This document shows, in pieces, positions 31,501 through 64,000 of a DNA stretch of 64,000 nucleotides. Source of the DNA: Patellaria atrata CBS 101060 (Eukaryota); NCBI GenBank assembly GCA_010093705.1, contig MU006103.1:62001-126000 (forward strand), written 5' to 3'. The notes beneath the pieces are model-generated. The model saw only the letters and a list, made by a program, of their open reading frames with translations. It searched no databases and was not told the DNA's origin. The position numbers and the translations under genes were made by a program. Position 1 is the stretch's first letter. Each line of letters starts with the position of its first letter.

Positions 31501-33585
31501 AAGAATGGTCAGATCTGGAATGATGAAGGTGAAGTTATTGGTCGTTGCGAGCTTATCCCTATGGAGGAGCGCGAGAGCAAACCTGAAGGGCCTTTCGCTG
31601 GTCTTCAAGGATTACGTGTTGTCAAGGATGGCCAGATTGCTGATGAAGATGGTAATGTCGTCGGCACTATCGTCGAAGGCAACCCTAAGCGTCTCGTCGG
31701 TCTCGCTGTTGATGAAGACGGTGATATAATTGACAAGTATGGCAATGTTAAGGGCCATGCTGAGCCATTGGAGGAAGAACCCGAGGAAGCCCCTGCTGAC
31801 CTTTCGATCCTTGAGGGCAAGACCTTGAACAAGCAAGGATTCGTCGTTGGTGAAGATCAGATTCCCGTCGGCCGCCTAGCAGAGGGTAACGTCAAAGAAC
31901 TTGCTGGACGCAAGTGTGATGGCGAGGGTCTCATTCATAGCGACACCGGTAAGGTCGTCGGCCGTTGTGAGCTCATTCCAGAAAATGAGCGTGTCAGCAG
32001 GCCGGAAGGTCCTTTCGCTGGTCTTGAAGGCCTCAAGGTTGTCAAGGATGGCAAGGTCGAAGATGACGATGGCAATATCGTCGGTATGATCGTCGAAGGC
32101 AACCCTAAGAAGCTCATCGGGCACAAGGTTGACGAGGATGGCGATATCATCGACAAGTATGGTAATGTCAAAGGTCGCGCTGAGCCATGGGAGGAAGAAG
32201 AGGAGGCGCCAGAAGATTTGTCTAGTCTCGCCGGCTGCACCGTCAATAAGGCTGGCAATGTTGTTGACTCTAACGGGAACATCCTTGGCCGTGTCGCTGA
32301 AGGCGATGCGAAACAAATGATCGGAAAGAAGGTCGACGGTCAAGGTCAAATTTGGGACAATGCAGGCAATGTAATCGGCAGGGCAGAACTTGCTCACGGC
32401 CAAGATAATACTCCCGAGGGCCCATTCTCCGGCTTCGATGAAGCTACTGTTGCAAAAGACGGAACCGTCCAGACACCAGACGGAAGTATCATTGGTCGTA
32501 TTATCGAAGGCGATGTCAAGAAACTCGTCGGTCACAAGGTTGATGAGGATGGTGACATTGTCGACAAGCACGGTAACCAGATCGGTAAGGCTGAGCGCTG
32601 GGAACCTGAGGAGAAGGAGAGGCGCATCAACCCAATGTCTGGTATGCGCGTGAACAAGGAAGGCGAAGTCCGCGATGAGAATGGCGATGTCATCGGTGTG
32701 CTTACTGCTGGTGACCTTGGCCATTGCGCTGGTCTAGAAATTGACGACAATGGTTATGTGGTCGACAATGATGGAAATAAGGTCGGCGAGGTCACTCTGC
32801 TTGAGAACCTTCAGAAACCTGAGGAAGAGATGACCGATGAGGAGAAGAAGAGGAAGGAAGATGCTGAGTTAGCGGACAAGATGGCAAACATTTGCCAGCA
32901 GACACTGGAACGCATTCAACCCGTATGCAAGCAGATCACAGAGGTAAGTTCCATCTATATCACTATCTTAATACAATATGTTCCTATACTAACACACGAT
33001 CAGCACATCGAGAAAGCCGATCGCACCCCCCGCGAGGAGCTCGACGAAGAGGAGCTCGTCAACAATGTCAAGCCACTTATCGAAGAAGGCTCCCGCATCC
33101 TACAAGAATGCAATGGCTCCCTCCGAGGTCTCGATCCCGACGGCCGCATCGCCAACCAAGCGAAAGGCCGGGCCAATACCCGCGAAGCCACACCGGAGGA
33201 GTATAGGCTCGCAGACTGCCTCAAGGAACTCACCACTACAGTCGTTACGACGATTGATAACGCGAAGAAGCGTATTTCTGATATGCCACATGCGAAGAAA
33301 AAGCTTAATCCACTTTGGAGTTTGCTCACACAGCCACTATTCCAAATCATCGCTGCCGTCGGTCTCTTGCTCACGGGTGTGCTGAATCTCGTTGGTCAGC
33401 TACTCAATGGATTGGGTTTAGGGGGCCTTGTTAACGGTTTACTTGGGGGTTTGGGTATAAATAAACTCCTTGGAGGTCTAGGTCTCGGAAGTATTGGTGA
33501 TGCTTTAGGAGGAGGTGATAAGAAAAAGAAGTCCGGCGGGAGCAACATGCCCCTCATCGGTGGTCTTCTAGGTGGTGGGAAGTAA
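28585..33585 (+). CDS. Giant LEA-like / DUF3659-type repeat protein (about 1650 aa)
   Basis: N-terminal acidic 11-mer repeats (AKDTAEDTTE), many L.G..V.K.G.I.D..G..IG...EG....L.G..V...G.I.D..G...G.AE repeats, and a helical Leu/Gly-rich C-terminal domain. One in-frame intron 32944-33003. Start may be 28465 or 28585. Confidence 0.92.
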   Translation: MAPSPAAGKASETPKTPTKLGRKPQSSQTSKLGEQKQPPKLSKSTSDDASERASESADQPPSKVEMKDNDDTSEISEKPKDDMKEAEPKPIDDSEDASAGAEADTEDTADDATEKAGEVGESAEDTAEDESEAPSNQASGLTGKAKNLAGRAAGTTSKAFEDPKGAAEETSNAAQDTAGDVAQGTKDTAGDAQNVFQDKTGGTKDTAEDTVEGAKDTAEDTTEEAKSTAEDTTEKAKETGKDAAEGVKKTGEDVADGDATEAADDVKDAAKDTTEDVADNAQDKTAEAKDTAQGVADEAKNTADDATEKAKDTAEDATGEDLPSTPDLSILRGLEVNKDGLIFDKQGNQVGKLVEGDAEDLEGFKIGDNGEILDDDGDLVGRCELTPEKAQEQADKAKEAAEGPKMPNISILKGLSCDPTGLILNDEGDTVGRIVEGNPEELQGMEIDENGEILDEDGDLVGRAELHEEAAQLIDQEGDLPEGVDGAKDKAEDAAEEAGEAAGDVEDELPGVEALEGKQINDDGQIVDEEGNVLGELTEGKAEEVKGLTVNDKGEVVDSDGNVLGKVELADGAAEKLQETAGRFTPDTRILKGLRVNKKGKILDEEGEVIGEVSEGEIKDLAGKTVNDKGEVLDKEGNVLGKVEVVPGDAADEAMKNLLETLDEQPQVKEVFPDLQILDGLKVNKKGQILDEEGEPIGELVEGELSDCAGKKVNDKGEVLDKDGNVIGKVKTLAQQLSPEEAQQAIDDGAHEAQEGAEEAQEGAEEAAEAAEDAAEDAGDDLPPPSILEGLKVNKAGKLINDDGVIVGELVEGDAKKLSKSGITCDDQGQFWDSKGHVIGRAQTVKVDEPEEEALFAGLEGLIVVKDGFVEDENENKVGKVVEGDAKKLVGRAVDEDGDIIDKKGTVIGHAERWEEPEPEEPEPEPEADPLDLSSLAGRTVNKQGNVIGDEGVPIGRLVEGNPKELAGKKIDKNGQIWNDEGEVIGRCELIPMEERESKPEGPFAGLQGLRVVKDGQIADEDGNVVGTIVEGNPKRLVGLAVDEDGDIIDKYGNVKGHAEPLEEEPEEAPADLSILEGKTLNKQGFVVGEDQIPVGRLAEGNVKELAGRKCDGEGLIHSDTGKVVGRCELIPENERVSRPEGPFAGLEGLKVVKDGKVEDDDGNIVGMIVEGNPKKLIGHKVDEDGDIIDKYGNVKGRAEPWEEEEEAPEDLSSLAGCTVNKAGNVVDSNGNILGRVAEGDAKQMIGKKVDGQGQIWDNAGNVIGRAELAHGQDNTPEGPFSGFDEATVAKDGTVQTPDGSIIGRIIEGDVKKLVGHKVDEDGDIVDKHGNQIGKAERWEPEEKERRINPMSGMRVNKEGEVRDENGDVIGVLTAGDLGHCAGLEIDDNGYVVDNDGNKVGEVTLLENLQKPEEEMTDEEKKRKEDAELADKMANICQQTLERIQPVCKQITEVSSIYITILIQYVPILTHDQHIEKADRTPREELDEEELVNNVKPLIEEGSRILQECNGSLRGLDPDGRIANQAKGRANTREATPEEYRLADCLKELTTTVVTTIDNAKKRISDMPHAKKKLNPLWSLLTQPLFQIIAAVGLLLTGVLNLVGQLLNGLGLGGLVNGLLGGLGINKLLGGLGLGSIGDALGGGDKKKKSGGSNMPLIGGLLGGGK

Positions 33586-44862: not shown

Positions 44863-47800
44863 AACCTAGAAATGTCTCATCCAAACTTTCTTTCAACAAC
44901 GTCTCAGTCTCCAAGCCGATAATCAGACACCGCGATCGCAGATATGTATCTTCTGCGTCCTAATCTGATAAACTGTTCAGGGAGCCATATCAGGCAAACG
45001 ACACTGCGACCCAGCTACTACATCATTTTTCACCGGAATTCTTCCAATCCTACCATGGAAGTATGAAGACCATCTAATATAACAACCGGACCTTCTCCCG
45101 AAAATAAGATAATAATGCAAATCATCTGTGGCATATAGCGAATGGGGCTTGCGCACGTAATCAGATCATAATAAAGAAAAGATTTATGATATTGGTGATG
45201 GGAGAATTCTGAATACACGTAAAGACGATCAAATTCTACGTAAGATGGACAATGAGTAGAGGATTCCATATATGGTCAAGATAAGACCGATGGAGGGGCT
45301 AAGTCCAAGTCAAGAGAGGGAACTGGATCCAATCCTACTACCATGCATATTCTGTCAGAGTATAGCAGGATGTCGTCTCAGAATAGGGCCGAGCAACTCC
45401 TTGAGTGCGAAGTAAAAGTAAAGATTCTGGTTTTAGAAGGAGATGGTATAATTCTATCAGAGGCTGAGTCGCATGCTTTTAACCATGTCTCCCGGATCCC
45501 ACATGCGCACCAATATCCAATTTAGCGGGTCCAAAAGGTCATCTGCCTGCATGATGCAACGATGCTGGTTAGCATTCTGTAACTCTTTCCTTAGTTAGTT
45601 TGTATCCCTTCACCTGGCGCCCGCTTAGATATAGTATTTTGCAAGAACTCCAGCCACGTTCGTTTGGGGATGTTTCCTTGCACTACCCTTATCTCCTAGA
45701 ACGGTTAACCTTTACTCGGACGGACCGAGAGAACATAATGAGCGGTAGCTTACCGTGCAACGTCATGACGTGCTCCTCGTACTCTTCAAAACTCGACCTA
45801 GCGGCTAGACGAACTGTATACCGAAATGTTTGCACCCTAGACGTAGCTCTCGTCACCGTCCGCGTGGAATCTACTTTTCAGCTCATGGGCAGCGTTCGAA
45901 TCGTCAGAGGTCACAGCGCACTGTCGGCCGTTTGTTTGGAGTCTAAATGCGTCATAGCGCAAAGTCCAGACCAGATGCAAGCGCTGCTCGTCGCCTTATT
46001 ATACCAAAGAGCGCGACGTGGCTGTCCCTTGGAAAATCCGTACTAAGTCGTAGTAGGGATATCTGGCCTAGGTCTTTCAGCTTGGTACATTATCATTATT
46101 GCAGGTTGAGGTTGTAGACATGGGTACTTCTCGAAGCATGAAGCCCCTTCTCGAGGGTGATTTGGTGGGGTTTGCAGCCCTGAAGCGTCATCTTTTGTAA
46201 CGTCTTGCCGGGTATTTACATCTAATGGATCTGTAAGTTTACCTAGCTAAATCTACACGTGACTGATGCACTGTAGGTTACTTCAGCTTCAAGGTTGTCA
46301 TCACTTGGTAGTGATGAGCATCCAGTCATTTTGGCTCGTTAACTGCTTTCTCGTCTAGGTTAATCCGCCTGGTTTAATGTTAATCTCTCAAGTCTTCTAA
46401 AAGGAAACTCGTTTCTCCTTTACTTTTGTTTCGCGCGTAAAATTCTACGAGGCTTTCAGGAGACAATTTTCCGTGATATTACTCTCGAAGTACATTGAAG
46501 GTATTTTCTACCATTTTCCGTTAGTAGAACTGTAAGCTTCGCAAAACCCCTAAGAATCTCCCAGGAGCGGAACATCCATGGGAGAAGCCCTGCGATCCGA
46601 AATCCATAGTGAGAAACTGTGTTCCTGCGTATGCCTCATCGACAACAATTCAGATACCGGCAAGTTTTTGATGAGTGCGTAGCCCCGCCCGCAAACTGCT
46701 TAGTCAGTACATATTGTGCTAAAACTCAGCCACCAGCGGTTCATCGCATTCTCTAACATGGTTTAAGTTCGGTAATGGTAACGTGAATGGTATTACCGCA
46801 TATCCCATTGGATAAAAAGAAGCTGAGTACATCAGCGGAATATTAATATTTCTATACTTCAAGCATACAGCATGAGCTGGCTGGGTTCCTCTTTTGCCGC
46901 TTGTTTTAGCCGTTCGTCAACGCTCCTTGCATCCAATTCTTACCCTCGCATACATCCTCTTCTAGATCTGCGGATTAGGCGAGGACGATCTCCTGTAACG
47001 GGATGGCGGCGCATTCTCCGCTAGCAGTAATGCTCTGCGCAGGCAAATGCTAAAGTTTTCAAGCTGTACATTACCAGTTCATTGGGATCTTGGGATATGT
47101 ATGATAAGCATGGTGGTATTCAACGGTTTACAGCGATGTCTGTTACAAATCGCAGCACGGTCCCACATGACCTACCTATTTTAACGTCTAGGGAATCCCG
47201 CGTGTTGTTCGTAAAAGGGCGAAGTTACTAAATTCACCTGTGGCAAACCGATCTCTGCTAAATGATTCCAAACTATTCGCTCCCTATTGACTTCCTAATC
47301 ACCCCTTTTGTAGACATGATAAACCATAGTACCACATTACTGACGACGACAGAATATATTACACAACCCCAAATATTTACCAAATATCAACCCCTGATCA
47401 TGTTCTTGATCTTCTTTGAGTTTTAGCCTCCCTCAGTGGAGTCTAATTTCATTACTGGGCTAGTCAAACCCTTATCTTGGAGGTGAGGAATATATGAGGA
47501 ATGACATACGTGACAATGTTTTCCTTCATAAAGAGTCCGAAATCAAAACGTTCTCCCACGAGGATCATTTCTTCAATCTTACCAGTTATACATTAGAAGT
47601 TGATATCGACAGGTTCGTACTACGTTGGGTACTATATCCGTTCAATTCTTTGTTTACTTCAATAGACCAATTGAGCGCTTGTTCTAGACCAGACGGTACA
47701 GTTTTCCCACGGCGTCACGAGATTGTTCAGGTGTAGCACGCTCCTAATCCTTAAGCTTCAGCGTCGTAGATCTCCTGAGTCGGTTCTACGGCCGCCATAC

Positions 47801-48428
47801 ACAAGCGGTAGGACCAAGAGATAAAAGGGGCAGAACCATGAGCTTGAACAGTACCAATTTAGTTTCCTCCAGCATCTAGCACACCATGGGAACTAATTTC
47901 CATTCCAACCCGCTTCCGATCTCCCCGACCGGCCTCCTAGTCTTCTCTGAATTCTGTTAACCTTCTCCGTATTTTGGACCGCAACCTATTATCGGCGATG
48001 AATGGTTCAATCTGTCTCGCCCCCGATAGTGGGTTATTATAGGTCAGTTGCAGTGCGTTATCACAACCAAAATACTTCCAAGTACTCCAAAAGAACCCCA
48101 TAACTTTTCTAACCCATACTACCTCAGCTATACCTATCTAGAGATCCGGTGAAGACGTTGGTTCAGGAGATATAAACCTTCTAATGTGCACACCACTGTG
48201 TTAAAGCCTACCCCATATAATCAACGTCTCTACCTTCAAGTCTCAAGATATCGACATCAGTTTCTATACGCACGGATAGGACAGTTATTTACTTCGAGCG
48301 ATACTCTACCCCTTACAATCATTACATCTGTCAGGAGTACTAAGCACAACCCCTTTTTCACGGAAGAGACTTTGGTAAGTATCCCGAAAGATCCCAAGGG
48401 AGAAGTATTAACAGCGGAACAGACCACG

Positions 48429-48783
48429 ATGGCTAATTCGGAAGCGAACCAACCCACCGCGCCAAATAACAATGGGGCCCTACCACGCCAGTGCGACGGT
48501 ACGGCAGCGGCAGTGAACATGAGCGGGGCGTGTATGACCGCGACGCAAGACACGCCGTATGCAATTCGCCGGTACCTCGAACAAGAAGTCCATGAGGATC
48601 CCTTCGTTGGCCTCGAAGATCAGTACAAATGTCGTCTGAATGTAGGTGCTCTAATTCGGGCTTTGAGAAACATTATCGTTTCTCTGACCAACCCTATCCT
48701 TGGTATAAAAGCTAACCGGAGCTATATAGGCTCTATTCCTTTCCCTTGATAAGGCTACTGCAACCTTTAAGAAACGGGAATGA
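48429..48783 (+). CDS. Small hypothetical protein (88 aa)
   Basis: Exon 48429-48641 (MANSEANQPTAPNNNGALPRQCDG..IRRYLEQEVHEDPFVGLEDQYKCRLN), intron 48642-48729 (GTAGGT..GCTAAC..TAG), exon 48730-48783 (ALFLSLDKATATFKKRE*). Confidence 0.55.
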
Positions 48784-50234
48784 TATAACAGTGATGTATA
48801 TCAAGCTAGTTCTGGGTGACCGAAAGCGTTTTGAGGGGCATTGTTGTCATTTAACGTCTGTACACTGTATGTTAGCCGGTCGTTGATACTGTCAGATTAC
48901 GGAGTAGAAAAAAAAAATAGATCTCTGCACTTTGTGCAATACATTTCTTTGGACCTTCTATAGCCTAAGCCTTGCAGCCTGCCTTCCTGGAGTGTGAACG
49001 AGTTACGCCACGCTAGCTATTACCCATAGGTAGTACTTACTTAATACAAAAAGATAAACTAAGATGACATCTACGTAGTCCGTATAAACCTATGTACTCC
49101 CTACCGTTCATGATACCGCATAGTCTTGTCTATTTGCACACTGGCTAGGTACTCTACTCCCGCAAAACATGTTGACGTACTTTCACTAGATCGATGCTTC
49201 ATACCCAATAACAAGCGTAACAACCGGTTTCACTAGAGAGAAGTTTTCAGCGCGGTCGAGTCCCTTCAATTCGCTTCACTTTAGGTAGAATCGCAAAGGT
49301 GGACGTAAACATCAAGCGGCTAATTCCGATTTTCTATGATAAATATACAGAAATAGAGGGAAATTGAGGTAACTTTTCGTTTGCTTTCGTTTCGGTCTCA
49401 GCGCAAGGGTAAAGGGGCCATCAGTCAAGATTCACTTAATTTTGATGAGTCAGCGTTCACTTCCCGAAACGGTTAGCTGCAAGCACGATTATATTCGATA
49501 CGTTTTTCGAGAAATATTCGTCTTCCTTACATCTCACTTTGAGCAGACGTAACTCACTTCTAGCAGTCGTAAGTCATTTCTTTTTTGTGAATTATAAACG
49601 TCCCATGGTGCGACTACCCATGGACCTACCCAATGGACCAAGGTGTCAACCCATGGGACATCAACACAGGTTTGCTCTTGATTCTCATTACAATTCTTTC
49701 CCACTAAACATGTTGAAAGTCGTCCATTCTTTCAATGTGTTCTGGAGTTTACGAATCTATTTAACTTTTCCAAATGCAGTCTTCGCTACTGCAGAATTAT
49801 TTTCCTCTTCCAGTCTTCGAAACCCTTAGAGTCATGGTGCAGGAAAAATTTCCTGTTCTGAGCCTCATAAAATCATACCATGGAGAGTTAGCTCTACTTA
49901 GAATTGAGTGGTATCAACTACCTGTACATGGTATCTGTACGGCGTTGAGACGTACTCACATGCGATACACGATTCGATATAGAGATGTGAGCAAACCAGA
50001 CAAGTGGTGAACGTAACGTCCTCTTTTAGGAAAATAAGTTAACAAATCATAGGCGCAGACTGAGATAGAAGTCTCTACACACAATTATCTCGACATTCAC
50101 AATCCTCCCACTGGGTACAGCACTCTTCCTTCCTCCATATCATCACGACATATTCATTCGCCGCCCGAAACACACAATACCACCGCACACAGTAAATTAT
50201 CGATACCATTGTACGAACCCAAACCTAAGAGACC

Positions 50235-51104
50235 ATGGCTACTACGAGTAGATGTGTTGTCTGCCTGGACACTGAAGAAGAGACTTCAACAGTCATACAC
50301 CGCCTAGGCTGCCCCGGACACCATATGTGTACGGACTGTTTGAAGGAATCCTTCGAACGAGCAATGAGGTTCGAGGGAGACTACCCCCCAACCTGCTGTG
50401 GACGAGAGGAATTATCCTTCGTCCAGTACTATCCCCTGATGGACCCGGACTTTGTCAGGAGATACGAGGCCAAAGAAGAAGAGTACAGTGTCCCCCAGGG
50501 GGAGCGGAGATACTGCTCAAACAGCGAATGCACGACATTCTTGTCCCCAGAAATTCACAAAAAAGATACGTCAAGGGCAAAATGCCCCAACTGCAATACG
50601 ATCACCTGCACCGAGTGCAAGAGCGAGGTCGCCGTCTCTCCCAACGGCGAAACAAACTCCCACCACTGCGAATATACGCAGGAGGAAGTCGGCTTCGAGA
50701 GGGCGGTCAGAGAGCACAGATACCAGCGCTGCCCCAATTGCGATCGAGTAGTTGAGCTCATGGAAGCATGTAACCATATAACATGCGTATGCGACCAAGA
50801 ATTCTGCTATATTTGCGGAGAAGAATGGGCAGGCCTTCATGCTTGCCCACAATACGGGCATCCAGAGTACGATGCAGAAGGGTATAACCAAGATGGCTTC
50901 CATCGAGATACCGGCTTCGACCGGGATGGTCACCCTGCATTCGATGCTCGGGGTGGTGGTAGGGGAGAAGGAGAAGAAGAAGAAGAAGAAGAAATAGGAG
51001 AACGAGAGAACCAAAGGTTCACAAACGCATATCTCGAGTTCGCCAGGTTGTTAGCTCAAGACCGGTTCCGCGGAGGCTTTGGCTTTGGACAGGACTTTGA
51101 TTAG
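50235..51104 (+). CDS. RBR (RING-IBR-RING) E3 ubiquitin ligase (289 aa)
   Basis: CVVC..CPGHHMCTDC..PPTCC; IBR YCSNSEC..CPNCNTITCTEC..HHC; RING2 RCPNC..EACNHITCVCDQEFCYICGEEW, including the catalytic Cys. Confidence 0.95.
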   Translation: MATTSRCVVCLDTEEETSTVIHRLGCPGHHMCTDCLKESFERAMRFEGDYPPTCCGREELSFVQYYPLMDPDFVRRYEAKEEEYSVPQGERRYCSNSECTTFLSPEIHKKDTSRAKCPNCNTITCTECKSEVAVSPNGETNSHHCEYTQEEVGFERAVREHRYQRCPNCDRVVELMEACNHITCVCDQEFCYICGEEWAGLHACPQYGHPEYDAEGYNQDGFHRDTGFDRDGHPAFDARGGGRGEGEEEEEEEIGERENQRFTNAYLEFARLLAQDRFRGGFGFGQDFD

Positions 51105-53860
51105 AACTAGATCGCCAAGCCTTTGCTTTCTGCCCATTTGGCCTTAGTGTAGCTCTAACTATGTAATACATAAGCATATTTGGACGTCTACCCATCCTGA
51201 CTCTCGCTCTCATTTAATTCCGTACGAACTCATTTTATACTTATAGCTTCTGTAGTGTAGGGATTGTGAGAAAGTATGCGAACCGTGGCAAGGTCCAAAG
51301 GATCGCTGAGTAAGCTTACAATACGGCCGCACTCCGTTGACATGTTTCACCCTCCCTTGCGAGTGCATACCTTATGATCCACACTCGACGGTTCTTAGTA
51401 TTGGAACGATTATATCTTAGATCAGCGGTGAGCGTATACCCATAATCGAGATAAGTACTCTCCTTCCGTATTGATACACCTACAGCTCCCTCTCGACGAA
51501 TCGGGCCATATATCACACTGGGAGTCGCACCAAGCGTCTTATACTATACAAGTACCGTATGGCCCCATAAACGGTGTTTCGAGCATTTCGTGGTCTCCTT
51601 TTATAGCATGAAATGATAAGGTGAACTTGCGGAACGTCTTGAGATGGGAATATGCGTAGGCCGGCAATCTTTTCTTTCTGGATTGGATCCGATCTATACA
51701 GAGTACTATAACGTCCTATGGAGACTTCTGACGGCATCCCGGATTTGCGTTGTTTGGAATTTAGAATGACGCATCGCATTGCACATGGATCAGTCAGCAT
51801 GAGACGTGGGATTGTTGAACACCAAGGACCAGAATGCCGGACGATGTTCGATAGATGCGATGATCATGCATCGCTTCGATCATCTGTGACCAGGATCTAT
51901 CAGCCGATTCAGGGTATGGTTCCTACAATTCCCGCTCATTTTGCATATATTTCAGACGATCACAAGAGCCCTACGACACTCAGTTTAAAAGGACTTATCG
52001 GTACACCTAATATACTGGATCTTAGGTGGAGTCTGCCTTGCAATGACATGTTGACTGTCCAGTTATATATGTGATCAAGGTGGGTCTATCACAGTCACAT
52101 TTAACCGTAAACCCAAATCTCACGTAACATTAGGGTTTCCTGTTTGGACTTTCATCCTTCCGCAAATTTCTCTTCTGTTTATTCGCGTATTAGATCAACT
52201 ATACAGTCATTCCGTGCTTTATACTTTAAGATTAGGATAGATAATTGCTTAACTCCACATTGATTCTTCTTCATTATGTATTTCTATTTAACTCTTATGT
52301 TACACCGAATATTTCTCATCCCGAGCATATTGAAACATTCAACATCTCCTTTAGGTCTGACCATACAACCTTATGTAGGGCCTCACCGCCCATCTGATCC
52401 ATTATACTTCTCTTTCACCTACCAGCGTTTATACCTTCTAAACTAAGTCCTATTTTGAACTCGTAACATTAGCAATCATCACGCCAAGCAAACTTATCCT
52501 ACATTTTTATGATAGAGGAACATTTAGGAAATAAGCTTCATATTAGTGAGTAACCTTTCAGCAACTTCGGGGGTAAAGAATCAAGTCAGCATAAGCGGTT
52601 CAAACAAGAAAGATTTATAAGTTACACCAAAACGGTCAGGCACAGCACCACGCTTTTGTGTCATTCCATATAGCAATCTATCGAGCTATATGTGAATATT
52701 TACGCCACATGTACTTAGGAAGGCCGAATAAGAAAAATACTCGCTAGACAGCTTACGACCTATGCGGAGAACGATCCTATTAGGTTTATTGTCTACTCAG
52801 GTTTAGGTCCTCTGACGAGCAAAGTTTGAGCCTACGTCGTGACGAAATCCTTGATAATGCACCTGCACATCGGCCATTGCTACTAATTGTGATTGAGGTC
52901 CCCAATGGTTCCGTGCCGTGGATGTTCTATAGGTCCTGATCCAACCACTTTCGTCTCCTAGACAAGGGACACGGCTTACTCTGTTCCATTCTGCATTCTA
53001 TGATTGAGCACAGAATAACGACTGGATTTTCTCGGTACGTGAAACCCCCCATTGACTGATGTGGAGCATTTGTGGATCCTGAAGTATCCGCTGCTTCCAT
53101 AACTTGCCACCGACGCACATGTTAAGCCCATAGTATTTTGTTATATTCGATATACGGTGTGAAGGTTCTAATCATTGAAATATTAAACTGATTTTGATAT
53201 TAGGATCCAGTGTTCCGCATGCATGGAGCACTGCTATAGGAGTAGCCCTAAGAAATATAAGGCTGACCAGCCATAGTCTTAATCCTCAAAATCACACCCT
53301 TACGAACTCTGATAGAAGTGCTCTGATAGAACCCAATTGTGGCTTGAAGGATCATTTTTTGACGGTCAGGAGCAAGTCAGTTTGGTTGCCTCTCCTATCA
53401 ATACTCACTTCGGCAGATATCTCTTTCACACTCTTGTAACCATTGCCGTCAGAAGGGATCAAGCCGCCATTCACAGCTTCAAGAATTTCTAAAAAATGTT
53501 TCATTATAGCAGTCTAAAGCGGAAACAAGTGGTCCACCAATCCATGCTCGCAGTGTCGATATAATTAACAATTAACTTTCCCTTGTTGCCGGCGTCATCA
53601 GCTAATGAAGGAATGTGACCAACAACTAGGTTGTCATACCACAGCCTCCTTTTGTATCCAGAACAAGGATACCCCATTCTATGCTCATGCAACGTCTGTC
53701 AGACAGGAGGACGTCGTTGCGTCCATCTTGAAGTATATAAGGAGGCAAGTACAACATCAAATTCCCCTCATCGCTCAACAGCATCTGCTCTTTCAATACA
53801 AAGAAAGGACTTAAACAGCAAATCTTCCATACAATCCTACTCTCCCCTCAACTCGCAAAC

Positions 53861-54289
53861 ATGCATTTCTCCACTATTGCTTCTTCAGTCCTCTTGGTCG
53901 TCTCTGGCGTCACTGCTGCCCCAAACCTCGTCGTTCGCGACATCGCCGCTGAGGTCGCCCTTTACACGGGCCGTGGCTGCACGGGCGATGGTGTCAGGTT
54001 CGGGACCGCTTTCCCTCCAGATGATGGTTCCTGCTTCGTCATTCCTCAAAACCAGGGTATCGCCAATAGTGGCATGATCGACACTCCAATTCCCGCGGGC
54101 TGCACACGTAAGTTATTCCGTTTCAAGGTTCGATGATGCTCGAAACTAATGGGTTCTGGGCCAGTCACTTTCTGGGCCAATCCGACCTGCAACAGCACCA
54201 ACTTTGTCCCTGTCAGTACTCAAAACCAGTGCTTTACCTTGGGGGATGCTGGTCCCCTCCGCTCTGTTCGCTCCAGCGGGCCTTGCTAA
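53861..54289 (+). CDS. Small secreted cysteine-containing protein (123 aa, effector-like)
   Basis: Signal peptide MHFSTIASSVLLVVSGVTA. Exons 53861-54107 and 54165-54289 (LTFWANPTCNSTNFVPVSTQNQCFTLGDAGPLRSVRSSGPC*). Six Cys. TATATAA upstream near 53734. Confidence 0.9.
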
Positions 54290-54925
54290 GTAGATCGCTC
54301 GAAGGGTGGTTGTAGGGGCGTATGTTTTGGTGTATAGAATTCGGATTGCTTGGGGTTCAACACCCCAGTTGAGATTTTGAGGGTGATGGGATCTATTCGC
54401 TCGCTCTTCGGATCATGGTGTCTCGAAATAGTCCTCTTCGCCTCGGTCTTCAATACAAGCATTCCTCCATGATTTGATCTGTTAAGTGAATGTGATGAAT
54501 GCTCCTCCTCTTGTCATGGTGCTCAATTCTTCCCGCGCTGAATTTAGGTTCACAGTAAGGTTCCCCTTTATGTAAGTACATCATGCTATTGAGGTTCAAA
54601 ACTGTGGTATTCTATAATAGACCATCCTCTTCAAGTTTGGTCAAGTTGAAAGATTGTCATATAATATGGGAGAACAGAGACTTGGAATCACTTACTCGAC
54701 TACGAGACGTCGCGTCGTACCCCTGAAAGAGTTATGGTGTCGGCGGATCTTCGGAAAATTCCGACAACTCGGTGCACGGTTCGCCTTGCACGAGTCGATC
54801 GTCCGCCCTTTCAAAATAACAATCTCAGATCCTTTTGCAAAATATCCTCACCGCTCGCTATCTATTCTATACCACCAAATCCCCTTCCGTACCTCAATAT
54901 ATTCCCACCAGATATTCTTTCTACT

Positions 54926-55159
54926 ATGCTCCGCCGACCCCCAACAAGAATACAACTAACATCCGACGACATCGCAGCGTATGAAACACGCAGACAACAG
55001 AGACTCTACGTCGCGCAGCTGAATCAACAGTCAAGTAGTGATGCGGGAAGAGCAAGTGCCAGTAGGGAGAATTCGGGGTTGAATGAGGAGATGGGGAAGG
55101 AGAAGAGCGGGTCAAAGATGGAGAGGATCATGGGGGCGAGGACTGGGGGGAGGAGTTGA
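54926..55159 (+). CDS. CDC26: Anaphase-promoting complex subunit CDC26 (77 aa)
   Basis: N-terminus MLRRPPTRIQLTSDDIAAYE matches the CDC26 signature MLRRxPTxIxLxxxDI. Confidence 0.9.
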   Translation: MLRRPPTRIQLTSDDIAAYETRRQQRLYVAQLNQQSSSDAGRASASRENSGLNEEMGKEKSGSKMERIMGARTGGRS

Positions 55160-56041
55160 GATGTGAAGAGAGTTATGACGAGGATTGGATTATGAAGGGA
55201 ACGGGGAATGAGAGCTGTTTTGACTGGGCACTACGAGGCTCCTTTTACGAGGTACGGCGAATAACTATGCGTCCACATTTCCCTCCAGGGCCTCGCGTCA
55301 CGTCCCTACCAATTTGGCATCATGCTTGAGGGAGTGCGGCTTTTTAGTCACCTTTCTGACTGCCATACCTTCCGGGGAAGCTATGAAGCCAGAGTCTACG
55401 TCCTGAGTGCGAGGCGGAGACGACGTCGTGCTCCCCTCACTTGTCCAGCTTCAGCAGCACAATGGGGATTTTGGCTGCTACATTGGTCATTGACCCTCTC
55501 CGTTCTACCACTTTATATCTGTCTTTTACGGACCGATCCGCCAATGGATTTGTCCAACCATAGAATTTGGTGGCTAGAACCTCAGTGACTTCGCGCATCT
55601 TCTTCTGGACCAAACCTCCACCGACCTTATCCTATTAAGTGGCATGTTCATGCAGGAAAACTCCCGCTCTGATTTTTAGGAATACATATCCTATATCTCC
55701 TGTATCTCGTCTTGGATATCAAACATCTGACGTTTAAGCGTAGAAACGATATCTCCCGATTATCAAGAAGGACTACTCGAACAGAGAATCACAGTAGCTC
55801 CTATTCCAATTCAATACCCTAGTGTGCGATAATTATTGTTGCATTACTGAGATTAAGTCTTGCAAATACATTGCTGGTAGAGGCAACTTCAAATGTTTAT
55901 CCTCTAGGTAATTTTAATGCAGTTTTCTAGTAACTGTCAATCTACATAGCAACACATAAATAATTGCCTTCTTCCAATAAAAAGCTTCACAAATGCATAT
56001 ATGAGGATCCAAAATGAGCATTGTTGAAACGAAAGTGACCC

Positions 56042-56051
56042 GTCACGTGAC
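56042..56051. promoter_or_regulatory. Palindromic E-box GTCACGTGAC upstream of nuclear ATP8
   Basis: Perfect 10-bp palindrome about 110 bp upstream of the ATG; a CCAAT box lies at 55974-55978. Function is inferred only. Confidence 0.35.
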
Positions 56052-56162
56052 CCTCGGTCTAATCCCGGAAGTAGCTCCCAAGCCCAGCAGCTTCCTTCGG
56101 ACCTCAATTGACGACTTCATACCTCACAACATCCATCTCGAACTCCAAATTACACATCCATC

Positions 56163-56596
56163 ATGTCTTCCGCACGCCTCTACCGGCCTCTGACAAGGGC
56201 CTTCCAAGCTCAATCAGCTATTACACGCTCAATTGGTACCACCGCCGCCGCGAGCCGCTTCCTCGCATCCAAGACGCCAGCTAAGCTCGGCATGTTCACG
56301 CCCTCAGTCTCTGCGCAATTCAAGGAGGGACGACAAACTACGGCGCTGTCTAAGAATATAGGCATAGTAAGTATCCTATAGGAAGACTGTGGATGGGGGT
56401 TTTGAGAGGGTAATGTCTGATAACGGGACAGATCCAACTCCAGTCCGCGATGCCGCAGCTCGTGCCGTTCTTCTTCGTCAACGAGACTGTCGCTGCTTTC
56501 ATCCTTATCCCGACGCTTATCTATGTCTTTTCGAAGTATGTTTTGCCGCAGAGGGTGCGCAATATGTTAGCAAGGGTTTTCATCACTAAGTTGTAA
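56163..56596 (+). CDS. ATP8: Nucleus-encoded mitochondrial ATP synthase subunit 8 precursor (122 aa)
   Basis: Exon 1 56163-56366, intron 56367-56431 (GTAAGT..CTGAT..CAG), exon 2 56432-56596. The C-terminal 48 aa from 56450 (MPQLVPFFFVNETVAAFILIPTLIYVFSKYVLPQRVRNMLARVFITKL*) match fungal Atp8 in length and motifs. They follow a 74-aa leader with 10 Arg/Lys and 1 acidic residue. Confidence 0.93.
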
Positions 56597-57007
56597 ATAT
56601 GAGGGAGAATAAATATGAGGTGGGGAGGAAGGGGGATTGATAGAGATCGGGATAGAATATATTCCAGTTGCTCCTGTGTGCTTGAGAAATTGGAGATCGT
56701 GATTTCATAAAGTTGTGCTATAGTTGAGGACATGGTTTGGTCTCGATTCTGAGGGAGATTCATCAGGACGGAACAATGCTTCAAGTTCGGAATCGGCACT
56801 CCATCGGAATTGGCTATTTGCGATTTATATGGCTTCCGAAAAAGAAACATCACGTACGAGCAAACCATCCATCCACAAAGCGTTACAAAAAATAAAATGA
56901 AAAAGAAAAAGGCAAAACAGTTTCGACCCGCTCCCCACGGATCGAGATCCATGCAGCGGGGTGGTACTTCTGCTTGAGTGCATTATTCCCCCTCTTCATG
57001 TTTGACC

Positions 57008-57190
57008 TCTGGACCGGTTGGTTTTGGCCTGATCAGTGTGGTGGGATTTTCTCACCACTAGGCCACGGGTCTCTGGGATATAGAAAGAAGTAACGGTTTG
57101 TTTGTTTATAAACTGTAAGTGGAAGGAACCTTTTTAGCGGGGGAGGGGTATTAAAATAACACCTCCCTTTCTTTTCACCTGTAAACAACC
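57008..57190 (+). ncRNA. Candidate box H/ACA snoRNA
   Basis: Hairpin 1 (GACC/GGTC, TGGCCT/AGGCCA, GTGGTGGGA/TCTCACCAC), box H-like ATAGAA at 57080, hairpin 2 (GTTTATA/TGTAAAC, GGGGGAGG/CCTCCCTT), ACA at 57185. Folded by eye. Confidence 0.4.
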
Positions 57191-57871
57191 CCTTTCCCCC
57201 AAGAACCCTTAGGTCTCCCCAATTTCTTGTCTAGAGTCAAGGACAACCATCAAATAACTATAGAGATGTCGGGAAACGAAGTTATACTGACGCGAACTGT
57301 AGATCTTACGATCATGAGGGGGAATTGGCTAAGGAAATGTGATAAAGGGGATTCTAAACTATTGCCCACATCACTCAGCTATGCTACCATATAAACGTCG
57401 CGAGGCTCGCGTTGAATTATAGTATATGTCTTGGTTCTTAGTTCATAGTGGGAACATGTGAATCACTGCCGTAGACGAGTTTTCATATTTGGGTGCATGG
57501 TGAATAAGAAAATACTTTTGGGTAATGAAGTGATTATTGAATGTACTACAGCACTGTCAATTTTGAGCATGTTTGGTTAGTAATAAGATGCGTGCGAAGA
57601 GTACTCGTAAGAACATCCCAGAGTTAGGATACTGATTTATAATCATATCAATGCTTCCTGGGCTCCTTTGGGCTTTTTAAACGTTACGTCTCGCATTTGA
57701 CATGTTCAAAAAACCTTAAAGACACCTTACAAATCGTAGTCATATTATGCATGAACGCTTAGACTACAATATTCTCAGCTCCCTATATTTAGTTCATCAG
57801 ATGATGGGCTTCCCCTGTAGAGCCTTCAGAGAATCTATAGCCATGTTATCGTTGGTTAGAAATCCCCATAT

Positions 57872-60800
57872 CTAATAGTCCAGTAGATCCCCTAACAGCA
57901 GCCGCTGATACTTCTCAATTACCTCCCCACACCTCACCAGCACACCTGCCGCCAAACTCCTTATCCTCTCATCCTCATCACCACGCCCCAACCTATCAAA
58001 CACCAGCTTCATCCACCCCTGAATCTCGAGTAAAGCCTTCGCGTGATCCTGGGCAAGCCGCTGCTTATCCTCATTCACTTCCAGGGACATCAGCACCGCG
58101 AAGAGCCATGCTTCTAAGATCGCTGGCTCGTCGGCGTTGGATCGGATGGAAAGCAACAGGTCCCAAAGTTCGGAGGTCATTTGGGGGAGAGAGTGTGTTG
58201 AAGGACCGGAAGCGTGGAGAATGATAGCGAGGGTTTTGAGGTAGACGGGGAGGACTATGGGAGAGAAGTAGAGGGATTGGTTGCCGTATGCTTGTAGATG
58301 CGTCCACCATCTACCGGTCAACGGGAAGAAGAAACTCTGTGATACGATCTTAGCAAGTTCGTTGGGAATTACTTTTTTCCTCTTCTTTTCCACCTCCATG
58401 CGTGAGGAGAAGGTTCGGACTTTCAGTACGCTGGGACCGCTGAGTCGGTCTGCGGCATCGAGAGCTAGTGGCTCCATCACAGAGCGTTGAAGCCGTTTGG
58501 ATATGCTCTCGACAGGAGAAATTTCCGTTGCATAGATCTTGTGTAATCTTTCTGGGAGTTTTTTAGACGGAAAAGATTGTACAGCCGGAGTATTTGTGTC
58601 GTCTGAGCTATATCCTGCGAGTTCTCGAGCTCCCAGACCCATTGTTGTCAACAAGGTAACTCTTTGAGATAAAGAGTAATCACCCTCAAAGAAGGCTTTT
58701 GCGAACCACTGGCCCATTTCAGCCGGTTGGGCAAGTAGAGTCGCTACCATCGCTTGTTGTCTCATCTCATGAAATTTCTCGATGTCGAAGTTATCTTGCA
58801 ACCCTACGAGTGTCGAAGCAAGATCGTGTATGTGGTCTATAACCTCTTTGCCAAAGTTAGACTTTCGTCGGATGAGACTAGTAGATGTTTGAAGAGCTAA
58901 TATATGGCGATCATAGTTTTCGGAGTCTTTCAATCCCGCAATCAGATCACGAACGTATCTATAGAGTGTCAATATTGAGTTAAACAGTGCATTTGCCTGA
59001 TATCTACTTACACCGGGGCTATAGGCTTATTCCTCTGGACAAGGGTGGCATCCTCTGTGTCGTCCTCAGGATCGGAGTCTGGTTTACTATATGGTACGAG
59101 ATCATCGTCTTCAGAATCATCCAGAATTTCGACAACTCTTGGAACTTTTATCTCTGTGATCTTTGAACTGGATTTAGCATTTGATTTGACAGATTCAAGG
59201 TTTGCTTTTTGGGTAGTCAAAATCTGCTTAGATCTCTTTTGCGGCTCCCTTTCATCCATTTTAAGATCTTCTATTGTTCCAATGTTATCTTTGATTCTTG
59301 TAAGATCAGTAAGATATTCCACTTCCGTCTTTTCTGATTCATCAAAGTCGAACTTCATACGACTCTCAGGTTTGTCGACGAGTTCGGAAATTGCTACTCC
59401 AACAACCATACCCAAAAATCGAGCGCGAGGAGACGAAGCAGCGATACGGTTTGTCATGCCGCTACCATGTGTACTCGATCTTGCTATCATTAAGAGCGCG
59501 ATGGGTTGCTTACGATGAACATATCCGCATGCAAGAAGGAGCCTTTGGGCGAGTGCTGCTCCTGTTAGTGTTAAGTCAACTGGATATCATGATAACATTA
59601 CCTTCCTGTTGTAGTATTGGGGTATGCTTAATAAAAAGTTGGTCTCCAAATATATCGAGATTTTTCTCCAGGATTTGCTGTAAGCTGTCTAATCCTGTGG
59701 TCAGCTAACCCCTTATGTAGAATATTTGTCCCTTTTACCTTCATTATCGGAAAGCACAGCAAAGGCAACACGCAACATGCGGACGGATGAATTTAAACCA
59801 GCGGTTGTAGCGGATGTCGTCCACGTTACGACTATCTCCAGTAATCTTTCATTGTCTGACAGTAACCCGGCTAACAAGGCGGCGGATCCAGAAATATCTT
59901 TTGGTGTTTCCCCTTCCTTTTCATTGACATTGCTATTAGAGAATTTGAGAAATTGTCCACTTATGACCGATAGTACAGAGACTATGAATTTTTTCTGTTC
60001 ATGCAGAAGCAATTTGCTGACCAATTTACTCAGCGCTACCACGGACTTCCCTTGCGTGAGGACAGTCGAGCAGATGATCTCTCCTACTAGAGAGTCTAAG
60101 TAACCGAGAGTCATAGATTTTCTTAAGAGAAGGGACAAATCCGTCTGATAGGTATCATCATCAGCGTCTTTTGAGCCAAGCATTAGAACGATATTTCGCC
60201 CAAGCCATTTCGATGTATCACTCCCAGTCGCAATCCATGCCCTATTTACAGATGGTACCTCCTTTGATTCCTTGAGGACGTCTTCAGCTTGTGCACTAGC
60301 TGTAAGTACTTTCCCAGAAGCAACCAAAGAGACGAACTCTTTCCAGATCAACGTTCTCTGCAAAGGGCTAGCAATATGAAAGTAGATGGATTTCCAGATT
60401 TCATATGTTGTATTACCATCATGCAACACGAGTTCTAAGACTTCGAGTAGGTTAGATATGTGCTGAACGACTGATTTCCTCTCTCCTCGTCCCTTTTTCT
60501 GCTTGCTCTCCAACACCAAAGCTTTAAGCCTGGCTACAATCGCTCCTATTCCTGAGGTATTCCTAAGACATGTAATAATATCTTGCTTGATTAAGCGCTG
60601 AGACTTCTGTTTCCCTAATGATTCCCAGAAGTCGGGTATAATGATCGTGACAAGAGCATTAATGAGTTGAGACGAGACAGGACCTGGTACGGTAATCTGT
60701 AAAAAGTTCCTTGCACCACCGTGATTGATATAGCTGAGGACATCTTGCAACTGTTGTCCATCAGGTTGTGATCTTAATACATCTATAATGTCCTCAGCAG

Positions 60801-60909
60801 ACGTGATGGGTTTATTGGTGGTCAATTTCGTTTCTTTGCTTAATGAAAGACCATTTTCAGTACTCTCTGTAAGCGGTGTAGTCTTGACGGGAGTCAAAAA
60901 GTCGTCCAT
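57872..60909 (-). CDS. TEL2: Telomere length regulation protein Tel2 (TTT complex)
   Basis: Multi-exon: MDDFLTPVK..; HTPILQQE; RARFLGMVVGVAIS; PYSKPDSDPEDDTEDATLV (CK2-site motif); P.YVRDLIAGL; LIRRKSNFGKEV; SLSQRVTLLTTMGLGARELAG. Confidence 0.95.
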
Positions 60910-61159
60910 AACCACTAATTGACTTTTTAACAATAGAGAATTTAGATCTTAGTTGCATTGCATGTTCGAAGTTGTTAAATAAGTTTGTAGACTGAACGTT
61001 GAAGCCGTTTTATATGCACCTAGCCGCCCTTTGCCGCTATCGCGCTTATGATAAAGAGTACTTTAAGCTCGACCTACTTAATGGTCTCCGACTTGAGCAA
61101 TAGGACAATAACTTTTGCTTGCTCTAAAGATAGTTTCTCCTTTCTTCTATACCTTTCAA

Positions 61160-62756
61160 ATGGCGGAAGTACTCCAGAAGAATGGTGTTTCAGCTCCTCG
61201 CGCTCGTTGGTACGCCAGTTTTTTTTCCCAAAATCCACTACCGTCTGATATAAAACAATTAGACTGACTACGCAAAAGGAAGCATCTGGACAAAATTCTC
61301 ACTCGACCAGGCCCTTTCACGGATGAGGACTGGGTACCCGGAGAAGATGTGATCGAAGGTCTATCAAGAACGAAAATCTTGTAATTATCTCCCTGAATTC
61401 TTCTAAGCGTACTAGCTAATACCCCTACAGAGTCATGTCAGTGAAATCAAAAGCGCTTCCCACCCCTAACTAACTTCCATCCCAGCGGCGCCGGAGGCCT
61501 AGGCTGCGAGATCCTCAAGAGTCTCGCGCTCTCAGGCTTTAAAGACATCCACGTCATCGATATGGGTAAAACAACCTCCCATATTCCACGCGATCACGTG
61601 GTCTTACCTTCCACCCCTTTTTATACTAACACCTCTCAGACACAATCGACGTCTCAAACCTGAATCGACAATTCCTCTTCCGCCACTCCGACGTCGGGCA
61701 ACCCAAAGCCACCATCGCGGCCAAATTCGTCGAGCGGCGCGTGCCCGGTGTGAAAATCACGCCCTTCGTCGGCAAGATCCAAGACAAAGACGAAGACTAC
61801 TACCGGCAATTCACCATGGTGGTCTGCGGCCTCGACAGCATCGAAGCGCGGCGGTGGATAAACTCGACGCTGGTCGACATGGTGGACGAAGACGACCCGG
61901 ATTCGCTGAAGCCGCTGATCGATGGCGGGACCGAGGGCTTCAAGGGCCAGGCGCGGGTCATCCTGCCGACGATGACGAGCTGCATCGAGTGCCAGCTTGA
62001 CATGCACGCACCGCGGGCCGCGGTGCCGCTGTGTACGTTGGCGACAATCCCGAGGCAGCCCCAGCATTGTATCGAGTGGGCGCATATCATCAAATGGGAG
62101 GAGGAGAGGAAGGATGTCACGCTCGACACTGACGATCCCGAACACATCACCTGGCTTTATCAGAAGGCGCTGTCGCGGGCGAAGGAGTTCAATATCGAAG
62201 GTGTCACGTATAGCATGACGCAGGGGGTTGTCAAAAACATCATCCCGGCTATCGCGTCTACGAATGCGATTGTCGCGGCGAGTTGCTGCAATGAAGCGTT
62301 TAAGATCGCTACGAATACGAATCCACCCCTAGGACTACCGGGTGGGAATAATTATATGATGTATAGTGGCGATGATAGTATATACACTTACACTTTCGAG
62401 CACTTGAAGAAAGATGATTGCCCCGTCTGTGGGAACGTCGCTAAGAAGCTTGAAGTGAATGGGGACATGACATTGGAGTCGTTCCTGGAGAGCATGGCTG
62501 AAAAACCAGAAGCGTGAGTTTACTTCCCGCCCGAAATGTGTAAGGTTTAATTGCTTATGAGCACAGACAACTCAAAAAGCCATCGATACGGTCGGAGGAG
62601 AAGACGCTCTATTATCAATCACCACCTAGCTTGGAAGAGCAGACTCGTCCGAACCTGAAGAAGGAATTATCAGAGCTCCTAGAAAACGGTGAGGAGGTCG
62701 TTGTGACGGACCCAGCATTTCAAATCAGCTTCAAGTTTAAGCTGTTATTCAAATAG
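61160..62756 (+). CDS. UBA3: NEDD8-activating enzyme E1 catalytic subunit
   Basis: Spliced [57 protein letters not shown], catalytic [33 protein letters not shown]. Confidence 0.97.
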
Positions 62757-62949
62757 GGGGCTTATGAATGACATATGATATCAAAGCATGCAAGTAAGGC
62801 GTCGGGCATAGCACCGGGTTTTGAAAATTATGCCATAGCGAAAGTTGCATAGTTAGAATCTCAGTGGTAGGGGGTTTACCATTACGTGACATAAACGGAT
62901 GGTATGGCATCAGAAAAGCGAATATGGAAACTTCGAACAACATCTCTGA

Positions 62950-64000
62950 TTAGTAATACCCTGGTGTACTATTATCATACTCGCGGCTCGTCCCCGGAAA
63001 TGCTCCAATCGGTGTCCCCCTACCCTCTTCATCCTCATCCGCACTGTCGGCTTCCTGGCTTTTGAATGTCTCCCCGCTGGGGTCAGGGGGAGCACGCATA
63101 CGCGTGATAATATCTGCGTCGAGTGAAGGAGGGTGGAAGATGGGTGGATTTTGATGGTATTCGCGACCCGTAGGCATCCTAGAGAGTAATGGTGCGATTG
63201 GAGGGATAGGAGAGGTAGAGATCTGGGAAATGTGTTAGTGCTGCTGTCAGAACATCTCACGTCAGAAGTTCCCTGGGTTCCATAATGTAGTTCCTCCTCA
63301 CGACCAACCACGTTAGACCCTGGTCAGATCTAGAACGAGATCTGCTGCGTTCGACAAATATTTGGACAATTTCCTCTTCGGGTGCATGAGTGGTCGAGGA
63401 AATACCGTGCCAAAATAATATACTGTAAAACAGACGGTATGGAAGGTTAAAATCACAAAACAAAATAAACTCACCATATCATTCTGTTTCACCCACTTCA
63501 CTTCCAACATCTCTACAACCCTCCCTTCCTCTGCCTTTCCCGCATCAATACCCCACTCCCCGCCCTTTTCAACCCTCTTATCTTCCCTCCGCTCTTGCCA
63601 TCCCTTCTTCAGCTTCGACAATCCACTCACTTTTCCCTCCTCTCCCTCTTTACCAACCATGATCCCCAGCTCCCCCTTTGCACCCCTCAACCACGCAATC
63701 CCCTCCGCCGTCGCCCCTCCAGCTTCCGCGTCAATGCCGAAAAACCTACAGGCCCTCGCTTTCGCAGTCCGCCGTAAGTCATCGACGTACTTGATCAACC
63801 CTTCGTCGACCCCTTTGACGCGTCCTAGCATTACCGCTGCCCGCGCTGCGTGTTCCGACGCTGCGATACAGAGTCTAGCAAACAGATGCGCGCGGACCTT
63901 CGGGATCGATGGTGCTTTGAACATCCAATCCTTGTTCTCCTTGTTTCTAGCATCAGCTACGACGGAGGGGTATGGATCATCTTTCAGAACGGCGATGAGT
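62950..64000 (-). CDS. palC: pH-response regulator PalC (BRO1 domain), 3' part
   Basis: [83 protein letters not shown]. Intron 63474-63223. Confidence 0.92.

Follow-up and report, generated by a model that had tools for sequence, protein, structure and literature searches.

The atp8 gene, which encodes subunit 8 of the ATP synthase Fo sector (Atp8, or A6L), is carried by mitochondrial DNA in most fungi and is kept there in most eukaryotes. Departures from this location have been described in the Pleosporales. As set out in the cited part of the Stemphylium lycopersici mitogenome report, the mtDNA of that fungus is without atp8 and atp9, and nuclear homologues of both genes are present, N-terminally longer and provided with mitochondrial targeting peptides as predicted by TargetP; other Pleosporales mitogenomes missing both genes are also listed there (Franco et al., 2017, PMC5626475). 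In the corresponding sections of further studies, neither atp8 nor atp9 is recorded in five Pleosporales mtDNAs (PMC4366305), atp8 is missing in 9 of 20 mitogenomes and was hence dropped from that study's analysis (PMC7225605), and all reported Pleosporales mitogenomes are said to be without the two genes (PMC8956966). Two other arrangements are touched on in the excerpted text of PMC3420929. The nuclear atp9 genes of Neurospora crassa and Podospora anserina likewise encode an Fo subunit that is small and hydrophobic and is made with a long, cleavable presequence, atp9 being a different protein from ATP8, and yeast ATP8 is functional when expressed from the nucleus, given a targeting sequence and code adjustment; this allotopic yeast gene is nuclear in its expression like the gene described here, but artificial. 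The gene that we analyzed is most directly comparable to TW65_04673 of S. lycopersici in being a nuclear atp8 with an N-terminal extension, which in Stemphylium is the predicted targeting peptide (PMC5626475, in the part cited). The earlier note on this DNA had suspected that a precedent may exist. Nuclear relocation is indeed published in the cited portion of that paper and is annotated in many species; therefore, the novelty that the note implied is absent.

The gene is on the forward (+) strand of a 64-kb window, by which we mean the whole stretch of DNA that was analyzed (64,000 nucleotides), and is predicted to consist of two exons. Exon 1 (56163-56366) starts with the ATG at 56163 and, in 204 nt or 68 codons, encodes residues 1-68 of a leader, the presumed mitochondrial presequence. 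A spliceosomal-type intron of 65 nt in phase 0 (56367-56431) follows, with a GTAAGT donor, a branch-like site CTGAT(AAC) at 56417-56424 and a CAG acceptor that is the first AG after this site. Exon 2 (56432-56596) holds six leader codons, 48 ATP8 codons and TAA: its codons 1-6 encode the hexapeptide IQLQSA (56432-56449), which ends the leader and abuts the mature Met, the mature ATP8 domain starting MPQLVPF occupies 56450-56593, and the TAA stop codon, as read from the sequence, is at 56594-56596. Translation of the spliced product yields a 122-aa precursor composed of a 74-aa leader and a 48-aa mature ATP8. The earlier note had described a 65-nt intron joining a 74-aa leader to a 48-aa Atp8, and we reproduced its coordinates exactly. 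If the transcript were left unspliced, the frame of exon 1 would meet a stop four codons further on, giving a 72-aa ORF. In the frame of exon 2, a stop occupies 56411-56413 and no ATG occurs ahead of 56450, such that IQLQSA can be translated only by way of the splice from exon 1. An alternative in-frame AG acceptor was seen at 56443, 12 nt past 56431, the use of which would cut IQLQ from the leader; on comparison with the relatives, we would favor the acceptor at 56431 over that at 56443.

Two ATG codons precede the atp8 start (region 56002-56193), at 56002 and at 56014, the latter opening an ORF of 59 aa that runs across the atp8 start codon in a different frame. They would serve as upstream ORFs if the transcript begins that far 5'.

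No full-length identical protein was found among the proteins of 96-2000 aa in the protein collection, where the sole entry for the gene is a 52-aa piece (P0009). A search with exon 2 at near-equal length returned two candidates, which were this same 52-aa piece and one 48-aa protein with 73% identity. Apparently, the two-exon precursor is without a full-length entry for this genome, and the presence in the collection of just the 52-aa piece fits the previous remark that the track of open reading frames misses the gene. Gene models of the nuclear atp8 of relatives often look mis-built (P0133, P0136, P0137, P0141, P0135, and P0147). Some begin in the intron or just past it and are 56-83 aa long, for example with a few residues ahead of MPQL; others have unrelated N-terminal extensions, as seen in a 141-aa Pleosporales sp. 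entry and in a 132-aa Pyrenophora teres entry. A two-exon gene this short seems to be systematically difficult to annotate.

The mature part is a fungal ATP8. It matched the Pfam family PF05933 with 68.4 bits (curated cut-off 26.1; E 6.2e-19) over positions 1-48 of the 48-position profile, which is the outcome expected from the profile search that had been proposed for the 48-aa domain; the leader exon matched no Pfam family. Among solved structures, residues 1-48 aligned with residues 1-48 of the yeast ATP synthase protein 8 chain 6b2z_A (E 2.3e-9; the chain is also in 6cp6 and others), such that the mature part is alignable end to end with a structurally solved subunit. All 27 columns that are invariant across nine sequences (this gene and eight relatives) are kept. 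The Saccharomyces cerevisiae protein is alike in its 48 aa, its MPQLVPF start and its FISKL-type end. It is unlike our gene product in being made inside the mitochondrion and in having neither leader nor intron, whereas the gene described here is nuclear, has nuclear codon usage, and its product would need import and processing.

Relatives of the whole precursor were sought among proteins and among metagenome loci. The longer-protein search gave 7 matches at E <= 0.001 out of 10 candidates, all of them PF05933 proteins of Dothideomycetes (Tothia, Lindgomyces, Dendryphion, Ampelomyces, Lojkania, Lophium, and Mytilinidion) of 99-124 aa encoded on contigs of 0.2-4.6 Mb, several being named 'ATP synthase protein 8' in UniProt. 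An exhaustive search of representatives retrieved 126 proteins at E <= 0.001, 26 of which were taken for comparison. A similar N-terminal leader was present in 8 of these 26, and seven of the eight could be named by cluster: Venturia (three species), Eremomyces, Trichodelitschia, Aulographum, Lasiodiplodia/Macrophomina, Vermiconidia and a metagenome-assembled genome (MAG) labelled Pyrenula ochraceoflavens. In a further cluster look-up, the named members were from the Pleosporales only, the others being unnamed metagenome proteins. From a metagenome scan for atp8, the best 80 of 529 confirmed loci were taken. These 80 split cleanly by GC content into 8 loci at 0.46-0.62 (L001-L008, hereafter nuclear-type), 70 at 0.21-0.33 (mitochondrial-type) and 2 at 0.40-0.44 (L037 and L041).

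The leader is homologous to those of other nuclear ATP8 precursors. Its N-terminal motif, M-S/N-S-x-R-x-x-R-P-x-x-R-A, recurs in annotated proteins from many Dothideomycete orders, and residues M1, R5, R8, P9, R12, and A13 are invariant in comparison with seven annotated nuclear ATP8 precursors. A tblastn search with exon 1 found the leaders of L006 (E 3e-7) and L007 (E 5e-8) among the best 80 of 529 metagenome loci. In a 23-sequence alignment, identity to the 22 relatives went from 9/63 to 27/68 in the leader and from 29/48 to 39/48 in the mature part; the leader of Vermiconidia is the least similar (9/63), yet it retains an FSTK-like block. At the end of the leader, IQLQSA aligns with T[IV]LKSA, VLQA[AG], and MLYA[AG] in the relatives.

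An extra leader block with FTPS is common to this gene, Tothia, Lasiodiplodia, L006, and L007, is reduced to PS in Venturia, and is absent from the Pleosporales and Mytilinidiales proteins. On this alignment, the gene is assigned to a long-leader form. The precursors of the Pleosporales type that were compared here are 99-105 aa long, and their leaders, at about 51-57 aa, are shorter than the 74-aa leader of this gene. The Venturia inaequalis protein KAE9969107.1 (119 aa) and the Tothia fuscella protein P0002 (124 aa), both annotated 'ATP synthase protein 8', are also of the long-leader form, as are the 122-aa products of L006 and L007. All four share with our gene the N-terminal motif and the hexapeptide before MPQL, and L006 and L007 also share the intron position. 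Their identity to the gene is 33-38 of 48 residues in the mature part and 21/67 to 27/68 in the leader; at the positions where their C-terminal AR[LF]FISKL carries L or F and S, the gene carries V and T.

With high confidence we regard the locus as an orthologue of the nuclear-encoded Fo subunit 8 (Atp8/A6L) known from Pleosporales and other Dothideomycetes. It is an intact nuclear gene that almost certainly functions, with a putative mitochondrial leader. By analogy with relatives, the mtDNA copy has likely been lost in this fungus. The account that competes best with such a loss is that the transfer is incomplete, with a functional nuclear gene accompanied by an intact mtDNA atp8, the subunit being dual-coded; we consider this improbable, at roughly a fifth of our belief. 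The parallel is that some fungi have both a nuclear and a mitochondrial atp9. In the sections cited, mitochondrial atp8 is still commonly shown in mitogenomes of most Dothideomycete orders, for example Mycosphaerellales (PMC8956966, PMC5626475). Vermiconidia calcicola, of the Mycosphaerellales, has an annotated nuclear precursor, so coexistence of the two copies may occur within the class. Dual coding would also agree with the neighboring Tel2 gene, the best named matches of which include Aureobasidium at 63%, a genus outside Pleosporales. Taken together, the best named Tel2 matches, to Aureobasidium (61-63%), Lasiodiplodia (60%) and Neofusicoccum (60%), suggest a Dothideomycete-like fungus for which no close relative is annotated. 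Dual coding agrees less with the pairing of a nuclear precursor and an atp8-less mtDNA, which is found in Stemphylium (PMC5626475, part cited) and in Macrophomina, where a nuclear ATP8 precursor is annotated according to the cluster look-up and where atp6 and atp9 are the only such genes listed in the quoted portion of the mitogenome report (PMC8451660). That the nuclear copy is under strong purifying selection, as documented below, fits a sole copy without proving one.

The locus is in nuclear, not mitochondrial, DNA. GC content is 0.43-0.53 all along the 64-kb window, the contig carrying the gene is 684,788 bp long, and the nearby genes are nuclear, encoding a Tel2-type telomere-length regulator, a ThiF-family protein and IBR-domain proteins. 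No tRNA genes were found in 52000-60000. Third-position GC (GC3) reaches 0.71 over the mature codons and 0.61 over the leader codons, against a mean of 0.14 (range 0.06-0.25) in the 70 mitochondrial-type loci among the best 80 of 529, in agreement with the GC-balanced, nuclear-style codons that had been claimed for the gene. When positions 46001-64000 were compared by blastn with the same best 80 of 529 loci, matches occurred only in the 8 nuclear-type loci and only within the gene.

The mature part is under purifying selection. By the Nei-Gojobori method over the 48 mature codons, comparison of the gene with its seven nuclear-type relatives L001-L007 gave pN of 0.165-0.214, pS of 0.62-0.73 and dN/dS of 0.08-0.17, values to be read with synonymous sites near saturation. 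In the leader, the close pair L006 and L007 differ with pN 0.043 and pS 0.187. These results bear on the possibility that the locus is a NUMT or a decaying relic, that is, an inserted piece of mtDNA or a dead former gene which is not expressed. The gene is short and is without a full-length entry in the protein collection, as could be said of a relic. However, its reading frame is unbroken and keeps all 27 of the columns invariant in the family, its GC3 of 0.71 compares with at most 0.25 in mitochondrial copies, its flanks are not mitochondrial-like and are without tRNA genes, dN/dS is 0.08-0.17 even with synonymous sites near saturation, and a leader and a spliceosomal intron at the same position are kept across distant relatives, such that we give a relic hardly any credence. 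The earlier note had read the locus as a functional nuclear atp8 carrying a presequence, as opposed to a NUMT, and this reading is sustained by the Pfam match, the nuclear composition and neighbors, purifying selection, the homologous leader and the conserved intron.

The two loci of intermediate GC (0.40-0.44), together with P0131, were considered as candidates for a nuclear 'poly-ATP8' polyprotein with in-frame tandem ATP8 units. The candidate was rejected: the repeats are placed downstream of the 3' end of cox1, and these sequences are mtDNA because the upstream cox1 frame reads TGA as Trp. In L037:1456-1854 and L041:804-1202, the last codons of cox1 (...NSLPKPHPFVNLPLQSG) and the whole of atp8 form a tandem in-frame repeat with a period of 195 nt. 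Two copies of this unit of cox1 tail and atp8 are visible in L037 and L041, and three in the 178-aa P0131.

Elsewhere in the window, a 1709-codon open frame at 28456-33585 (+) contains 14 DUF3659 repeats (996 bits), followed by DUF6987 and a weak beta-flower match. Its product is a large repeat protein.

We then turn to the intron. In 8 of 8 nuclear-type loci among the best 80 of 529, the reading frame traced back from the mature Met runs into a stop within 6-23 codons, with no ATG in between. An AG acceptor is positioned 18 nt 5' of the Met codon in this gene and in 7 of the 8 nuclear-type loci from the same best 80 of 529, L005 having it at 21 nt, and branch sites of the CTAAC or CTGAT type are found just 5' of the acceptor in these loci. 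A leader ORF with the family N-terminal motif was located 52-67 nt further up in the 7 loci with enough upstream DNA, and the spliced products match the junctions of annotated proteins, QQM|T[IV]LKSA. A spliceosomal intron would thus be present between leader and mature part at a conserved position. We infer splicing at 56366/56432, since the intron position is conserved and the hexapeptide is translatable only once spliced. That each piece is a free-standing ATG ORF could suggest two unrelated ORFs, the 48-aa one leaderless or the 72-aa one from another transcript and the splice a coincidence, a reading we dismiss as extremely improbable because the six conserved residues before the mature Met are behind an in-frame stop without ATG and need the splice, exon 1 is homologous to the N-termini of annotated single-polypeptide precursors, and the GTAAGT donor, the branch-like site and the first AG are all canonical. 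In the literature searched, we found no published discussion of the conserved intron or of a class-wide origin, although such discussion may still exist.

The composition of the leader fits a presequence that targets the matrix, at the level at which charge and amphipathicity can predict it. The 74 residues include 6 R, 4 K, no D and 1 E, giving a net charge of +9, and 18 of them (24%) are Ser or Thr (10 S and 8 T), in line with the basic, hydroxyl-rich leader that had been described from the sequence. The maximum helical hydrophobic moment over 18 residues, scanned in the first 40 residues, was 0.599 at residues 5-22; this value was reached by 3.6% of 2000 shuffles (shuffle 0.401 +/- 0.103) and is modest, a composition proxy and not the output of a trained predictor. 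A search of the ESM Atlas with the leader exon gave a best score of 0.82, to unnamed clusters and below the 0.9 taken as lead level, and no clue to the origin of the presequence. Inspection by eye for the R-2, R-3, and R-10 processing motifs found no convincing match before the mature Met.

The probable route of the product can be proposed from these features. The mRNA would be spliced and then translated in the cytosol, and the amphipathic, positively charged N-terminus would direct import into the matrix by way of TOM and TIM23. Cleavage of the leader would occur at or close to the conserved x-L-[QK]-[SA]-[AG] / MPQL junction, after which the short N-tail would be exported and the single helix inserted by an Oxa1-type 'conservative sorting' route. 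In yeast, subunit 8 has its N-terminus in the intermembrane space and its C-terminal tail in the matrix. The Oxa1-type route would reproduce this topology, with the basic C-terminal tail on the matrix side, whereas a stop-transfer route would yield the opposite orientation. The subunit would then join the base of the Fo peripheral stalk.

As for the history of the transfer, the intron falls exactly between the leader and the part derived from the mitochondrion, which fits a presequence gained as a separate upstream exon and suggests that the transferred atp8 acquired its presequence in this manner. A 48-column tree was built from 95 rows. Nuclear forms made up 24 of these and mitochondrial-type forms 70, with a single tandem row; L041 and the first of the L037 repeats were excluded. 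All 24 nuclear rows fell on one side of a branch with an SH-aLRT value of 89, unstarred, in a tree in which most forks are unresolved and the mitochondrial rows are without taxonomy. Of the phylogeny that the earlier note had called for to count independent transfers, what stands is that the nuclear rows group together; a single transfer is neither proved nor refuted by it. As the tree is poorly resolved and its mitochondrial rows are without taxonomy, the leader and intron held in common are the main guide to the number of transfers.

The same leader motifs are present in precursors of at least nine named Dothideomycete orders or incertae-sedis lineages, and also in Vermiconidia (Mycosphaerellales, Dothideomycetidae) and in the Pyrenula-labelled MAG (Eurotiomycetes). 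The intron, too, sits at the same position wherever genomic DNA could be compared. We tentatively consider, with somewhat less than even confidence, that a single ancient transfer took place, older and wider than in the published Pleosporales picture, with long coexistence of nuclear and mitochondrial copies and repeated independent mitochondrial losses. Transfer beyond Pleosporomycetidae is a lead and not a result, because the Vermiconidia leader is the least similar of those aligned and the Pyrenula record is a MAG.

The record in question, from the MAG labelled Pyrenula ochraceoflavens (Eurotiomycetes, Pyrenulales), is P0143, a 131-aa precursor in which the N-terminus of the leader is Dothideomycete-like. 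Either the relocated gene extends beyond the Dothideomycetes, or the contig derives from a Dothideomycete that co-occurred with the Pyrenula.

A natural nuclear atp8 is a template for allotopic expression and for the question of why genes stay in the organelle, and is useful in this respect because most eukaryotes keep atp8 in mitochondrial DNA. This argument was raised earlier for Pleosporales, and artificial nuclear expression of yeast ATP8 is long established. What is new here is an additional orthologue, whose lineage has no close annotated relative; a correction of the gene model, the two-exon precursor being apparently missing from the protein collection; and the long-leader form with its conserved hexapeptide and fixed intron position, which could guide a survey of the date of the transfer and of the cleavage site. 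If the transfer was single and ancient, the intron would be the scar of the capture of the presequence as a separate exon, and this lineage would be one more sampling point of that history.
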